NCBI GenBank assembly: GCA_963664035.2
Contig: OY760867.2
Span: forward strand, 3,212,503-3,276,502
Direction: 5' to 3'
Source: Dehalococcoidia bacterium
Lineage (GTDB): Bacteria > Chloroflexota > Dehalococcoidia > Lucifugimonadales > G958296245
Length of the DNA stretch: 64,000 nucleotides
Part shown: one piece after another, positions 17,483-30,554 of the stretch
Layout: each line of letters starts with the position of its first letter
Numbering within the stretch: position 1 is the stretch's first letter
Notes under the pieces: generated by a model
What the model was told of the DNA's origin: nothing
The model's database searches: none
The model's input: only the letters and a program-made list of their open reading frames with translations
Program-made: the position numbers and the translations under genes

Positions 17483-20400
17483 TCACGCCTCCGTCCATCT
17501 GACAGAGATCCCCAACTGCTCGAACGCCTCGACGATTCTCTGATTCAGAACGTCTTGGGAGATGCCGGCGTCGCTGGTAACCTCTATGGTCACGCTCAAC
17601 TCTGCCCCGGCGTCCTGCTCTTGCAGGACCTTAAACAGGTATGGCTGAAGGTTGTTGGTCTTGGCTACGGCGAGGTCATCGACATCGAGCCTGACCCGCG
17701 TCAGGCGCTTGGGCGGGGGCGGGACCACCTGGTCGCTGATCTTGCGGACAGCCTTACCGTGCTCTTCAGCAGGGGCCTGTTTACTCTCGCTCCCGGTCTC
17801 ATCCTTTTCGCTCCCCGGCTCCTCCGGGCGCAATTCCTCGCGGATGAGCTGAAGCATTTCTCCCTTCACCAGCGAGGCTGAGCCGTCGAAGAGAGTTGCC
17901 AGGCCGTCGACGCCTTCGGGCTTCTCGACCAACGCCTGGTACTTGCTCGTAGCGACATCGCCTATAGCGACGGCCCATAAACCCTGGGAGACGCCCTCCC
18001 GGATGCAGGAGCGAAGGGTCTCCTCCCTATTGGGAAGGATCGGGAGGTAGGTCCATTGGGGAAACCTTCGGCTGGCTTCGGACAAGTCCAGGGCGTCCGT
18101 CTCATCCTTCCACAGGCTCGGAGCGATCTTGGCGTTGAAGTAGACGGCGCCCATCTTCGGAAGCACTTTCGGCGCGCCATAGTCCTGGTCCGAGAGGCGC
18201 TGCACCACTCTTCGCGCAATCTGTTCGCCCGTGGTGGCGGGCACGGGCAGAGACAGCGGCTCCATCCCCTGCTCATCCGGGTAGAACACCCACCTGTAGG
18301 CGGTCGCCACGCTCGTCTTCAGGCTGTCGCGCTTGGCTCTGCTCCGGCTTTCCAGGTCCTTCACTTCGAGGTTGCTGAGGTCGATTGACTTCCTGCCCGC
18401 CGACCCTACAACGGACTCATAGGCCAACACTTCACGGACCGCGTGCTCCGCCCGGCCCCAGAACTCCCTGTCGGGCGCTACAAGCACCAGGGCGTTCCTC
18501 CACTGGCGGAGACCGCCGCCCACCCTGTCCCATAGCTGACGCACCCGTTCCCTATCGGCGCCGGCGGTCGTCCCGCCGTTGCCGGACTCGCCAACGGCGT
18601 ACCTGGGATCCAGCACTGCGACGGCGGGGTCCGGGTTGTCGGGAATCTGGCCGTCCGCGCCCGCCCAGGGGATCACCCTGAACCCGGCAGCCGTCCCGAT
18701 TACTCCGTCAACCTCCGTGCGCAGCCGGTCCGCCACAATGGACTGCGACTGTTCGTCGGCCCTCTGCGCGATCACCCTATAGATGTTTGGACGTGTCTGG
18801 AAGCTGAGCGAATCGCCCTCCCGGTGTACGTACCAGAGCGTCTCCTCCAGCGAGCTCAGGACCTCCGTTACGTACTCGGGGCCGACGTTGGGAGCCACGG
18901 TGCCTAGGCGAAGCTCCTGCGGCGTGCCTCCTCTCCGTTCCATGCCCCCGAACGAGTGCATGAGCACCGTCGTGGCGACTCCCCGCGCGATGTGGAATCG
19001 CGCGTAGTCGCTCCCGCGATTCCGGTCCTGCATGTCGGCGTGGGCGTCTCCGCCAACGATGTCAGCCGCCACCACGCCGTCGTAGCCGCCGCCTGCGCCG
19101 GCGGCGCTGACGATCCGCGTGCGGGTCCGCTCCCGTTCCAGGTCTACGTGCGCCGACTGTATCGCATGGGCCTCGCGCCGGTTGGCCCACTGGTCGGCGA
19201 CCACTCCCGCCAGGAGCTGGAGGGTCGCCCGGGTCCTGGGAAAGTCCGGCGCGGTCGACCACTTCTTGTAGATGACGTCGATCAACTCCGGGTGGAGGGG
19301 ATACGCGGCCCTCTGCTGTTCCAGGTATTCGGGAGTCAGGGCCGCCGCGTCGTACAGCCCCGGCGTCTTCTCATAGACCTGCCTGTACGCGTCCGCGACT
19401 CGCTCCGCTGCTCCGGCGTCCACGCGCTCGAACAGCCGCCTGCGCATGAGCACGTAGATGTCCTCGTCGTTGATGGGCGTCCGCTTGGAGACCACGCGGT
19501 CGGCGCGCGGCTGCAACTCCTCCATGATGCTCAGCTCGTTGCGGAGCTGCTCAGGATCGAGGCCGCCGAACTCACGCCTGCTCTTGGGCAGTGAGATGAG
19601 CACGCAGACGCCGGGAACGTTGCTGGCAAGCTGGAGGGTCTCCTGGAGGAACTGCACCGTCTGCCGGTAGAGGTTTAGCGTGCGGCGGGAGCTGGAGTAT
19701 CTCAGCTTCACGAGGTAGCTGACGATCTCATCGAGCAGGATCAGGCATGGGGACGCCTCCTCCAGCACCTGCCTGAAGACGGCGTTGCCGGGAGCCTCGC
19801 CCCGGCCGTCCGAGTCGATGACCAGCTTGTGGAAGATCCCGACACCCACCTGGTGGGCAAGCTCTCCCCAGAGCGTGTTTACCGACGCGCCATCCTCCTT
19901 CATCGCCGGTTCGCTGCCCGCCTCCTGGCCGTCGAACACCAGCACGCGGGCGCCGGCGGGGATGCGTACTCCGCCCAGCGCCTCCGCGACGGAGGGTATT
20001 TTCGACGCCTCTTGGGGGCTGCCGATCAGGTGGTAGAGCGTCAGGAGGGCGTGGGTCTTGCCGCCGCCGAACGGCGTCTGCACCTCGGTGACAGCGGGCC
20101 CCTGCCCTCCGCTCATCCTACTGGCTATGTCCCGCACCATCTGCGTCAGGTTCTCGGTGAAGTAGGTCTGGGAGAGGAAGCGCTTGGGGTCGAGGTATTC
20201 GTCGCGCGCCGACCCCGCGAAGACGCCGCCGAGGGTGGCCGCGAAGAGCGACTCGTCGATGTGGGCCGGGTCCCGGAAGCCCTCACGAGGCGTACACGCC
20301 TCCCACCAGTACGGAATCTGCCCTTTCGTCGCGGGCATGGCCTCCCGAACCGCGGGAGCCTCTGCCTGCGTCATGCCAAGGACCTGCTTGCGTATCGCCT

Positions 20401-30100: not shown

Positions 30101-30554
30101 CGCGCTGCATCAGCTCGCGCATGAGGAGGCCCGCCATGATGGTCTTGCCCGCGCCGGGGTCGTCCGCCAGTAGGAAGCGGATGCGGGGCAGCGGCAGGAT
30201 GTGGCCGTAGACGGCATCGAGCTGGTGGGGCAACGGATCGACCTGCGACACGGACACGGCGAACTGTGGGTCGAAGGCGTGGGCCATGTGTGTCCGCAGC
30301 GCTTCCACGGCCAGTCGGAACAGGCGAGGCTCGGCGTCGAAGGTGTGCGTTCCCCCGGCGACCTCGGTGACCTGGGCGCTTACCTGGTCGGCCGGGATCG
30401 TCCGGTCATAGTACTGGGAGTCGACAACACCAACCGCCTCGATCCGAACGGCTGAGCCGTGCTCGCCCACACGAATGACGCGCACGGGTCCGGGCCAGAA
30501 CGGACCCTCGATGACGGTATCGGGCTGAAGAGAGGATGCAGACGGAGAAGCCAT
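27177..30554 (-). CDS. SNF2-family helicase fused to C-terminal DUF3883 (PD-(D/E)xK-like) nuclease domain, 1,125 aa
   Basis: Motif I is [11 protein letters not shown] (~30138-30167) and motif II is [11 protein letters not shown] (~29846-29872). Motif III is [10 protein letters not shown]. Motifs V/VI are [35 protein letters not shown]. The C-terminus reads [46 protein letters not shown]...FFIYEV (~27250-27560). Confidence 0.85.
   Translation of the reverse strand: [1125 protein letters not shown]

Follow-up and report, generated by a model that had tools for sequence, protein, structure and literature searches.

The window, by which is meant the whole analysed stretch of 64,000 nucleotides from a Dehalococcoidia bacterium, contains seven genes at positions 17483-30554, all found on the minus strand and transcribed in the order g1 to g7 (Table 1). 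ATGA overlaps are found at the g1/g2 and g3/g4 junctions, while g2/g3, g4/g5, g5/g6 and g6/g7 are separated by 2, 37, 1 and 20 nt, respectively. The first-pass annotation had described a tightly coupled, co-oriented defence operon built on a trio of DUF499, DUF1156 and DUF3883-helicase genes, and this description holds: all seven open reading frames lie where it had placed them, and every domain it named is confirmed by Pfam. The longest reading frame of g2 begins at a GTG at 27378. This is not the likely start; preferred is the ATG at 27180, which overlaps the hmaA stop codon as ATGA and is preceded by a GGAGG. The ATG of hmaB at 25418 overlaps the g3 stop in the same way. Read from the chosen starts, the g3, g4 and g6 proteins are exact matches to the deposited proteins P0241, P0121 and P0001, respectively. 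Only one sizeable non-coding stretch is found at the operon, in front of hmaA, and it is therefore likely to be the promoter region. A sigma-70 consensus scan gave nothing on the minus strand, and the total number of matches was not above the shuffle expectation.

Table 1. Genes and candidate promoter region of the hma locus, in order of transcription.
Feature	Position	Strand	Product or content	Length	Remark
g1, hmaA	27177-30554	minus	SNF2 helicase + NOV_C/DUF3883	1125 aa	
g2	26050-27180	minus	ABC-type AAA_21/AAA_15 ATPase, embedded module 1	376 aa	counted from ATG
g3	25415-26047	minus	DUF3226 protein, embedded module 1	210 aa	TTG start
g4, hmaB	22575-25418	minus	DUF1156 methyltransferase	947 aa	
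g5	21479-22537	minus	AAA_21 ATPase, embedded module 2	352 aa	
g6	20857-21477	minus	DUF3226 protein, embedded module 2	206 aa	
g7, hmaC	17483-20836	minus	HEPN_Swt1 + DUF499	1117 aa	
Candidate promoter region	30555-30748	minus		194 nt	between stop of upstream giant gene and hmaA start

The three large genes encode the core proteins of an Hma system. The g1 protein matches the PADLOC model for HmaA (PDLC00659) with an E-value of 3.5e-205 over residues 24-1061, and Pfam finds Helicase_C, ResIII, SNF2-rel_dom and NOV_C. The motifs GAGKT134, DEAH231 and D...IEVK are intact, and HmaA is predicted to be an SNF2/DEAH translocase that carries a NOV_C (DUF3883) PD-(D/E)xK nuclease at its C-terminus, acting as the primary effector. 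The g4 protein matches HmaB (PDLC00661, E 3.5e-143) and Pfam DUF1156 (E 6e-24). With intact DPFAGGG126 and DPPY540 motifs it is a predicted N6-adenine-type DNA methyltransferase of the DUF1156 type with a putative role in self-marking. The g7 protein matches HmaC (PDLC00662, E 2.7e-123, residues 177-1110), and contains the Pfam domains HEPN_Swt1 (7.5e-12) and DUF499 (5.9e-33). The HEPN Rx4H motif RNTWAH107, the Walker A motif GGGKT257 and the Walker B motif LILLDE365 are all intact, and HmaC is predicted to be a Swt1-like HEPN RNase fused to a STAND/ORC-like DUF499 ATPase, serving as sensor and organiser and also as a suicide RNase.

Hma was defined by Payne et al. 2021 (PMC8565338) and has since been renamed the Type-1 DUF499-centred BREX-related (BR) system (PMC12839542); a variant with HEPN-fused DUF499 is found in 1370 taxa (PMC12839542). 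The assignment made here rests on matches at the level of PADLOC HMMs. The genes are co-oriented in the order A-B-C, with two genes in each of the slots between them, and the published rule allows no more than three genes to be embedded between two core genes (10.1101/2024.01.29.577857). DUF3780 is confined to Type-2 BR systems, which also have an HKD helicase (PMC12839542). No DUF3780 gene is present in the window's operon, where gaps of at most 37 nt are too short for a further gene; the absence, which the first-pass annotation had listed among the undescribed features, is therefore the rule for a Type-1 system. Nor does the helicase carry an N-terminal HKD nuclease, the PLD_Helicase and NF042964 matches on HmaA being restricted to the C-terminal lobe of the helicase (residues ~540-620).

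Slot 1, between hmaA and hmaB, is occupied by g2 and g3. The g2 protein matches the PADLOC models PDC-M38A (3.7e-88) and AbiLi (2.5e-58) as well as Pfam AAA_15 and AAA_21. It has a Walker A motif (GKNNTGKS33), a Walker B motif (VLLIDE286) and THS323, and among PDB sequences it weakly matches the OLD nuclease and ABC NBDs; it is predicted to be an ABC ATPase of the OLD/AbiLi type, functioning as a sensor. Its neighbour g3 matches Pfam DUF3226 (E 4.2e-63) and PDC-M38B (E 5.4e-51), and is predicted to be a Toprim-like nuclease effector. With both models matched in adjacent genes, the ATPase first, pair 1 matches PDC-M38, an AbiL-related candidate of PADLOC.

Pair 2, g5 and g6, is a diverged relative of this PDC-M38-type pair and fills slot 2, between hmaB and hmaC. 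The g5 protein is matched slightly better by AbiLi (1.8e-51) than by PDC-M38A (5.2e-50), belongs to Pfam AAA_21 and AAA_15, contains GLNNSGKT29, LVLVDE264 and THS301, and gives matches to RecF and Rad50 among PDB sequences. The g6 protein scores 81 bits against Pfam DUF3226, where the cut-off is 27 (E 1e-22), and matches PDC-M38B weakly (5.7e-5); it belongs to a separate 'DAE' subfamily of DUF3226, and over 1000 homologues of the protein were found, the best ones being 60-77% identical. The two interleaved ATPase/Toprim-like copies of the first-pass annotation are thus both present, but they are only distantly related: g5 and g2 share 33% identity in the C-terminal half, and g6 and g3 share 24%. 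The pairs are probably old paralogues, and probably respond to differing triggers.

The small proteins had been called Toprim-like, with DUF4276 and DUF4435 among the families suggested. Their Pfam family is DUF3226, and a Toprim-like character is suggested by motifs and model. E10, D13, D64 and E123 are invariant across both DUF3226 subfamilies, while position 66 is acidic (D or E); g6 carries the same E/D/DxE/E pattern as g3. These residues mirror the metal-binding set of AriB, which consists of E26, D30, D88, E90 and E122 (PMC11464382). The AF2 model of g3 (pLDDT 90) has a beta-alpha-beta-alpha-beta-alpha-beta core with a Glu after beta1 and DxD after beta3, the arrangement by which the Toprim fold is defined (PMC12065111). 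The best fold matches of this model in the PDB are retron Eco2 structures (9i2f, 9lm3) and the OLD nuclease 6p74. They are weak (E 0.02-0.05, probability 0.72-0.87), none being better than E 0.01. Comparison with solved structures gave no sequence or profile match, and a profile comparison of DUF3226 with single DUF4276 and Toprim sequences gave nothing significant. Taken together, the motifs, the model and the weak fold matches make DUF3226 look Toprim-like. No experimental support for PDC-M38 or DUF3226 was found in the literature searched.

Among 37 assessable Hma loci the A-B-C order is kept in all. Slot 1 is filled in 24 of these, slot 2 in ten, both in seven and neither in ten, and ABC ATPases are found in both slots in at least three loci. 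Close relatives vary solely in their slot content. HmaA of the window is 77-91% identical to that of L070, L080 and L081, and HmaC 73-86% identical to that of L070 and L079-L081. In L081 (HmaA 91%, HmaC 86%) pair 1 is present and slot 2 is empty; slot 1 of L070 holds an ImmA-like gene and DUF4411; L080 has AAA_21 with DUF3226 in slot 1 and AAA_21 with DUF4276 in slot 2. An ATPase with a small partner is found in both slots of L028, and each slot of L054 contains an ABC ATPase, the one in slot 2 being partnered by DUF4276. Among the loci compared, no other was found to have both slots filled with DUF3226 pairs. Toxin-antitoxin-type genes (HicB, UPF0175, and ImmA with DUF4411) are found in the same slots or in the neighbourhoods of other loci.

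Both types of pair also stand alone, far from any hma gene. The g6-type pair adjoins RM/Fic genes in L001 and L082 and an AIPR gene in L083, and no hma homologue was found in the fetched flanks of L072-L074. More distant DUF3226 homologues (27-35% identity) also accompany an ATPase outside Hma, one such pair lying where a phage tail gene cluster ends and another on a 6.4-kb ColE-type plasmid.

According to published work, some 63-67% of Hma loci have cassettes between their hma genes. In a dedicated study, embedded genes were found in 62.7% of 1,485 Hma systems, pairs of an ABC ATPase with a TOPRIM, NERD or PIN protein among them, and seven of nine embedded candidates that were tested defended against phage; HEC-01, the ATPase + TOPRIM candidate among those tested, gave no protection (10.1101/2024.01.29.577857). 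OLD-ABC-linked backup nucleases are found in at least 1242 taxa (PMC12839542). It is likely that the block is one Hma system (Type-1 DUF499-centred BREX-related) in which each slot holds a two-gene cassette of an ABC ATPase and a DUF3226 protein, and that these cassettes are autonomous modules.

The working of such a locus, as read from sequence and literature, is likely to be as follows. HmaB would methylate the host DNA as a self mark, and HmaC, an ORC/STAND-like ATPase with DNA-binding modules, would recognise unmodified invading DNA. HmaC might then engage HmaA, whose SNF2 motor and PD-(D/E)xK nickase would damage the invading DNA, while the HEPN RNase on HmaC may be an abortive effector of last resort. 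HmaA on its own has been shown to protect E. coli against T4, for which it requires both the helicase and the nickase domain (PMC11232893). HmaB and HmaC were dispensable for this HmaA-mediated defence, and overexpression of HmaB gave T4 no escape (PMC11232893); a restriction-modification logic is therefore unproven. The embedded pairs would be horizontally exchanged modules of the OLD/PARIS/AbiL type, in which the ABC ATPase holds and controls the small Toprim-like nuclease. On a phage cue, possibly an anti-restriction protein, the ATPase might release or activate the nuclease, and the pairs could thereby serve as a second layer, abortive in kind and transcribed together with the restriction-like core.

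The pairs might instead be dedicated accessory subunits or 'guards' of the Hma lineage, dependent on HmaA, HmaB or HmaC in one integrated seven-gene machine and firing, for example, once the core is blocked by a phage inhibitor. Translational coupling links all seven genes, and in at least four loci (the window, L079, L080 and L081) hmaB is immediately preceded by pair 1, three of these junctions being ATGA overlaps. This adjacency could reflect functional coupling rather than mere passage. Pair 1 has also diverged roughly in step with the core, the DUF3226 proteins of these relatives being 64-70% and their HmaB proteins 74-79% identical, and five g3-like homologues apparently share a contig with HmaB homologues, as confirmed for the three that were looked up. 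It has furthermore been proposed that embedded modules may need inputs encoded by the system (PMC12839542). However, a g3-type pair of 70% identity is found solo in L084, all g6-type pairs of 55-70% identity lie outside Hma, L070 has a different slot-1 cassette and L004 and L009 have none, and slot 2 is empty in L081 in spite of its closely similar HmaA. Such dependence on the core thus seems unlikely. A more specific version, in which the two diverged modules are wired to the core as paired guards that each sense a different phage counter-measure against Hma and release a putative Toprim-like DUF3226 nuclease, with the conserved ATGA coupling of pair 1 to hmaB as a functional dependency, is likewise regarded as doubtful.

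It is very improbable that the ATPase-DUF3226 pairs are addiction modules of a toxin-antitoxin-like kind, mainly serving to stabilise their host island or plasmid and not to sense phages. The 6.4-kb ColE-type plasmid, which is mobilisable, carries such a pair and no other accessory (non-transfer) cargo, others are found on 4-14-kb plasmids, Pfam labels AAA_21 'putative AbiEii toxin, Type IV TA system', and the toxin-antitoxin-type genes mentioned above occur in comparable positions. The nearest characterised relatives (AbiL, PARIS, Gabija, OLD and Septu) are, however, phage-triggered defences, and of nine tested candidates that had been predicted from their embedding in RM-like systems, seven were true defences. 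Defence and addiction are in any case compatible roles and not mutually exclusive.

Hardly credible is the first-pass proposal of an undescribed composite system, possibly a relative of MADS, with seven obligatory genes, three nucleases and four NTPases: both ATPases do match Mad3 weakly (PADLOC mad3 1e-11) and the double DUF3226 occupancy was found in the window alone among the loci compared, but the NCBIfam MAD3 scores of 28.2 and 38.3 bits are far under the cut-off of 420, no other mad model was matched, the large genes are genuine hmaA, hmaB and hmaC, even relatives with 77-91% identical HmaA do not keep the same set of seven genes, and occupancy of both slots by ATPase pairs recurs with other partner families (L080, L028, L054; PMC11232893). 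The suspected overlap with MADS thus reduces to a weak P-loop similarity. At the level of PADLOC HMMs the block is essentially assigned to a defined system, an outcome that the annotation itself had named as speaking against novelty. The interleaved pairs were also taken as undescribed, but cassettes embedded between hma genes have a dedicated paper, the ATPase + DUF3226 cassette is listed as a PADLOC candidate, and an ATPase-containing pair in both slots is published for Halomonas. Since embedded defence modules are common in Hma, the locus is not a new composite system; it is an ordinary example, with embedded modules, of a published anti-phage operon.

When it comes to known systems, MADS (Mad1-8) likewise combines a methyltransferase with an ABC ATPase that is paired with a Toprim-like DUF4276 protein (Mad3-Mad4), but the window has no equivalents of Mad1, Mad2 or Mad5-8, and its core is that of Hma. 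DISARM and BREX type 3 were rejected: HmaA is matched by DrmD (1.6e-155) and BrxHII (6e-102), both weaker than the HmaA model, the NCBIfam DrmD score is 378 bits against a cut-off of 610, and genes for PglZ, DrmB and BrxC are absent from the seven-gene block. PARIS (AriA/AriB), AbiL, Gabija and P2 OLD also have an AAA_15/AAA_21 ABC ATPase next to a small acidic-motif nuclease (PMC11464382). Their conserved residues (E, D, DxD/E, E) follow one another as in the window pairs, and they are likewise linked to RM-like systems and to phage or satellite hotspots. The effectors of this OLD-like family are DUF4435, RloB or Toprim_OLD, while those of the window are DUF3226. The pairs are not PARIS, as neither small protein matches AriB or DUF4435 and the AriA matches are secondary (4e-25, 7.5e-27). 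Nor are they AbiL; AbiLi is matched by both ATPases, yet AbiLii by neither g3 nor g6. Closer are the HEC/PDC sets, specifically PDC-M38, in which a two-gene cassette of an ABC ATPase and a small protein is nested in an RM-like system; pair 2 differs from PDC-M38 by the subfamily of its DUF3226 protein. The hma locus of Halomonas meridiana, which has been studied by experiment, also consists of seven genes, and each of its slots holds a pair that includes an ATPase, namely Septu PtuA/PtuB in slot 1 and AAA_21 with an unannotated protein in slot 2 (PMC11232893). The partner effectors are there an HNH protein and the unannotated protein, while the window has DUF3226 twice. With Hma/Type-1 BR itself the window shares the three core proteins, their order and common strand, the HEPN-fused DUF499, the DPPY methyltransferase of the DUF1156 type, the lack of DUF3780, and the SNF2 helicase with its C-terminal PD-(D/E)xK nuclease. 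The core is identical in kind to what is already known as Hma, and the particular cargo alone is specific to this locus.

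All seven minus-strand open reading frames reported by the first-pass annotation were found where it had placed them, and every domain it named was matched by Pfam; the catalytic motifs are intact in all proteins of the block that were checked. The table lists the genes as g1 to g7 in order of transcription, together with their neighbors. Two of the junctions (g1/g2 and g3/g4) are ATGA overlaps, and the others are gaps of 2 nt (g2/g3), 37 nt (g4/g5), 1 nt (g5/g6), and 20 nt (g6/g7); g2, g3, g5, and g6 are preceded by Shine-Dalgarno-like motifs. With the start codons adopted here, g3, g4, and g6 encode the deposited proteins P0241, P0121, and P0001, all carried by one 3.52-Mb contig. 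A scan for consensus promoters and terminators gave no more hits than expected from shuffling and found no minus-strand promoter, so that the case for a single transcript is one of gene spacing.

Genes of the hma operon and its surroundings, by position in the window
Feature	Position	Strand	Description
Giant gene 1	2-11542	-	FN3 and GLUG repeats; at least 3,847 aa, runs off window start
Uma2-family ORF	12184-12966	+	putative restriction endonuclease-like by Pfam family (PF05685)
Uma2-family ORF	12821-13768	+	putative restriction endonuclease-like by Pfam family (PF05685)
Histidine kinase/response-regulator hybrid	13980-16355	+	GAF-PAS; downstream of Hma block
Glyoxalase-family gene	16990-17373	+	downstream of Hma block
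g7	17483-20836	-	hmaC
g6	20857-21477	-	DUF3226
g5	21479-22537	-	ATPase, AbiLi/PDC-M38A match
g4	22575-25418	-	hmaB
g3	25415-26047	-	DUF3226, PDC-M38B match
g2	26050-27180	-	PDC-M38A-type ATPase
g1	27177-30554	-	hmaA
Giant gene 2	30752-64000	-	FN3 and GLUG repeats; at least 11,083 aa, frame still open at window end

The operon lies in a segment of about 19 kb between two minus-strand giant genes that are paralogous (44-55% identity over 2,900-4,000 aa), and this segment may be an insertion between tandem paralogs. None of the annotated ORFs of the window was recognized as an integrase or a transposase. The G+C content of the block is 0.62-0.67, slightly below the 0.68-0.70 of the flanks, which is consistent with horizontal acquisition. 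Around the block centre (16001-28000) it falls to 0.62-0.64, which is 4-7 points less than in the flanking giant genes (0.68-0.70). Giant gene 1 has a signal-like N-terminus. Giant gene 2, called as an ORF of 10,995 aa with a TTG start at 63736, ends with a Pro/Thr-rich linker followed by a hydrophobic anchor and a tail of RRRRR. The two Uma2-family ORFs are adjacent and partly overlapping, immediately downstream of giant gene 1. Long plus-strand ORFs lie opposite giant gene 2, at 30645-31658 and in large numbers within 33-63 kb, one of them encoding 337 aa of (GVGS)n. These shadow ORFs were rejected as genes, being artefacts of a high-GC, repeat-rich coding strand, which is also why Pfam returned nothing for the ORFs of both strands at 1002-9866.

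Searches against PADLOC-DB identify g1, g4, and g7 as HmaA (3.5e-205), HmaB (3.5e-143), and HmaC (2.7e-123), and g2 and g3 as PDC-M38A (3.7e-88) and PDC-M38B (5.4e-51), the two parts of a PADLOC candidate consisting of an ABC ATPase and a DUF3226 protein. The ATPase g5 matches both AbiLi (1.8e-51) and PDC-M38A (5.2e-50), and g6 matches PDC-M38B weakly (5.7e-5) and the Pfam family DUF3226 clearly (81 bits, cut-off 27). The NCBIfam models for DrmD, the Type-2 "DUF499/DUF1156 anti-phage" proteins, and MAD3 were matched below threshold only. Membership in MADS, DISARM, BREX type 3, PARIS, and AbiL was tested and rejected.

Hma, for helicase, methylase, and ATPase, was described as a system in 2021, when 1,638 instances were counted across 26 phyla (PMC8565338), and a 2026 survey renamed the trio the Type-1 DUF499-centred BREX-related (BR) system (PMC12839542). 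According to a 2024 preprint given over to this subject, genes are embedded between the hma genes in 62.7% of 1,485 systems, with examples of two and of four such genes, and pairs of an ABC ATPase with a TOPRIM, NERD or PIN protein are recurrent cargo (10.1101/2024.01.29.577857). The source cassettes of PDC-M38 apparently have counts of 84 and 66 in a supplementary table. Another study found insertions in about 66.5% of hma loci; in its Halomonas meridiana locus, Septu occupies the interval from hmaA to hmaB, and that from hmaB to hmaC holds an AAA_21 protein with an unannotated one (PMC11232893). The HEPN-DUF499 fusion is reported from 1370 taxa, and 79% of taxa have the helicase-nuclease fusion; BREX and BR systems of at least 1242 taxa include backup nucleases linked to OLD-type ABC ATPases, and DUF3780 is confined to Type-2 systems (PMC12839542). 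The first-pass annotation had proposed the block as a candidate composite defence system with features that it did not recognize as described, and this finds partial support: the block is a defence operon of a documented kind, Hma at the HMM level and in a published pattern. The interleaved ATPase and Toprim-like pairs, the missing DUF3780, and the multiple nucleases and NTPases in one block, all listed as unrecognized, are thus each covered by the Hma and BR literature.

What is specific to this locus is the presence of DUF3226-family pairs in both slots, that is, between hmaA and hmaB (slot 1, pair 1, g2 and g3) and between hmaB and hmaC (slot 2, pair 2, g5 and g6), and that alone; it fits the established pattern. 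An HmaB scan of the genome collection gave 66 loci from many phyla, archaea included, the closest relatives (59-69% identity) coming from Chloroflexota, Dehalococcoidia, and Bathyarchaeia MAGs. When the ORFs of these loci were searched with the seven window proteins, the A-B-C order was kept throughout. Both slots could be assessed in 37 loci: slot 1 is occupied in 24/37, slot 2 in 10/37, both in 7/37, and neither in 10/37, and DUF3226 pairs in both slots were seen in none of the 37. Double occupancy by ATPase plus small-protein pairs is nevertheless recurrent, with varying partner families. According to Pfam, locus L028 has an AAA_15/21 ATPase and a small partner in each slot plus an ABC-3C-type gene, and in L054 slot 1 contains an AAA_15/21 ATPase and slot 2 contains AAA_21 with DUF4276, while the other doubly filled loci carry AIPR, deaminase-HATPase_c_4, Schlafen-HATPase_c_4, NYN or DUF488 cargo.

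The closest relatives of the locus, L070, L079, L080, and L081, come from metagenome contigs, and as they differ in slot content the core is inherited and the cargo varies. In L081 (HmaA 91%, HmaC 86%, and HmaB 74% identical to the window) there is a pair 1 (ATPase 78%, DUF3226 70%) and nothing in slot 2. L079 also has pair 1, its ATPase being split, and its slot 2 contains an unrelated gene on the opposite strand. Slot 1 of L070 holds an ImmA-like gene and DUF4411, nothing else, and that of L080 holds an ImmA-like Peptidase_M78 with DUF4411, two small ORFs, and AAA_21 with DUF3226, its slot 2 being filled by AAA_21 and DUF4276. L080 is the nearest analog of the double occupancy in the window, with three separate embedded cassettes (2471-18032) and AbiEii and a serine recombinase upstream. 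The slot-1 ATPase of L079 (859-1985) is spread over two ORFs, 212 and 140 aa long, on a contig of 2.6x coverage. This points to a frameshift, to decay of that embedded module, or to a misassembly.

Four deposited HmaB homologs of about 1,190 aa (P0123, P0127, P0147, and P0194; 70-78% identity to that of the window) match PF08719 in addition to DUF1156, and the listed domain order suggests that it is N-terminal. We take PF08719 to be NADAR, an ADP-ribose-processing domain. Its fusion to a methyltransferase was not met in the available text of the Hma and BR papers.

Pairs of both types also occur by themselves. Those of the g6 type, at 55-70% identity, adjoin RM and Fic genes in a Gemmatimonadota MAG (L001) and a syntenic 5.9-Mb metagenome contig (L082), and one stands beside an AIPR gene amid housekeeping genes (L083); for those of L072-L074 no hma homolog was detected in the fetched flanks. 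A solo g3-type pair (70% identity) is found in a 3.0-Mb genome (L084). A functional wiring of the pairs to the Hma core, in which DUF3226 would be a new effector family, is held to be unlikely, and their being integrated guard subunits of Hma is marginally less probable still. On a 6.4-kb ColE-type plasmid a more distant DUF3226 pair makes up the whole of the accessory (non-transfer) cargo, and another lies just beyond a phage tail gene cluster of a Plesiomonas megaplasmid; g6 itself had no match among plasmids and only three loci in the metagenome scan. An addiction module is a very improbable reading of the pairs. A novel or MADS-like composite is hardly credible for the block.

The g6-type pair of L001/L002 and L082 occupies one and the same chromosomal site in two Gemmatimonadota-like genomes, with Fe-ADH, PRA-CH, and NAD-synthesis genes lying downstream of it. 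The defence cargo next to it is HsdR-like, Fic, and MTase-S in one genome and Fic with MTase-S, DUF5131, HicB, and NYN in the other, and the site looks like a conserved defence hotspot. Within the window the two pairs are, judged by their sequences, old paralogs: the ATPases are 33% identical in the C-terminal half and the DUF3226 proteins 24%. Recent tandem duplication of one pair was rejected on this identity of just 24-33% and since the nearest relatives differ, so that the two are independent acquisitions.

The locus is one more example of Hma (Type-1 BR) operons as insertion hotspots for small modules of an ABC ATPase and a nuclease, a pattern already on record. Its value is modest, that of a clean natural test case, as L081 differs chiefly by the absence of pair 2. 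Together with the solo pairs of each type this contrast would permit a direct test of whether the modules work independently of the core or with it.

An alignment of 57 DUF3226 sequences from both subfamilies has V9, E10, D13, G60, D64, A65, G120, L122, and E123 invariant, and at position 66 the g3 subfamily has D and the g6 subfamily has E. The AlphaFold model (pLDDT 90, pTM 0.87) has a β-α-β-α-β-α-β core in which E10 ends β1 and D64-x-D66 ends β3, the placement given for the Toprim signature (PMC12065111). The top hits of Foldseek against the PDB were retron Eco2 (9i2f and 9lm3, probability 0.72-0.87), the OLD nuclease 6p74 (0.84), and, more weakly, AriB. As all these matches are weaker than E 0.01, the model-based prediction of a Toprim-like nuclease is held as likely and unproven. 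PDB sequence and profile searches and a BFVD fold search gave nothing meaningful, and no second Pfam family was matched by either protein at E up to 10. Using hhalign, the DUF3226 profile had no significant match to a topoisomerase Toprim segment or to one DUF4276 protein (E 0.028, probability 1.8%), although the EG..D and DAE motifs were aligned in the latter. A literature search found no published account of DUF3226 or PDC-M38. At the sequence level the ATPases resemble OLD, RecF, Rad50, and ABC-transporter NBDs, as would be expected of the ABC clade and not of AAA+.

In the proposed mechanism HmaB would methylate self DNA, and HmaC would sense unmodified DNA and license the HmaA motor-nickase, its HEPN domain perhaps acting as an abortive back-up. 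H. meridiana HmaA protects E. coli against T4 and requires both its helicase and nickase domains, and an HmaB-dependent protective mark was not detected in this only experimental Hma study (PMC11232893). In the embedded pairs the ABC ATPase may sequester the predicted DUF3226 nuclease and free it once a phage cue is sensed; if DUF3226/PDC-M38 were shown to be such a trigger-released Toprim-like nuclease, this would be a small but real advance. HEC-01, an ATPase and TOPRIM pair, gave no defence against the phage panel tested (10.1101/2024.01.29.577857). By analogy with PARIS and AbiL the pair might add an abortive layer of defence and with it a safeguard against anti-restriction proteins. The conserved acidic residues of DUF3226 parallel the metal-site set E26, D30, D88, E90, and E122 of AriB from PARIS (PMC11464382).
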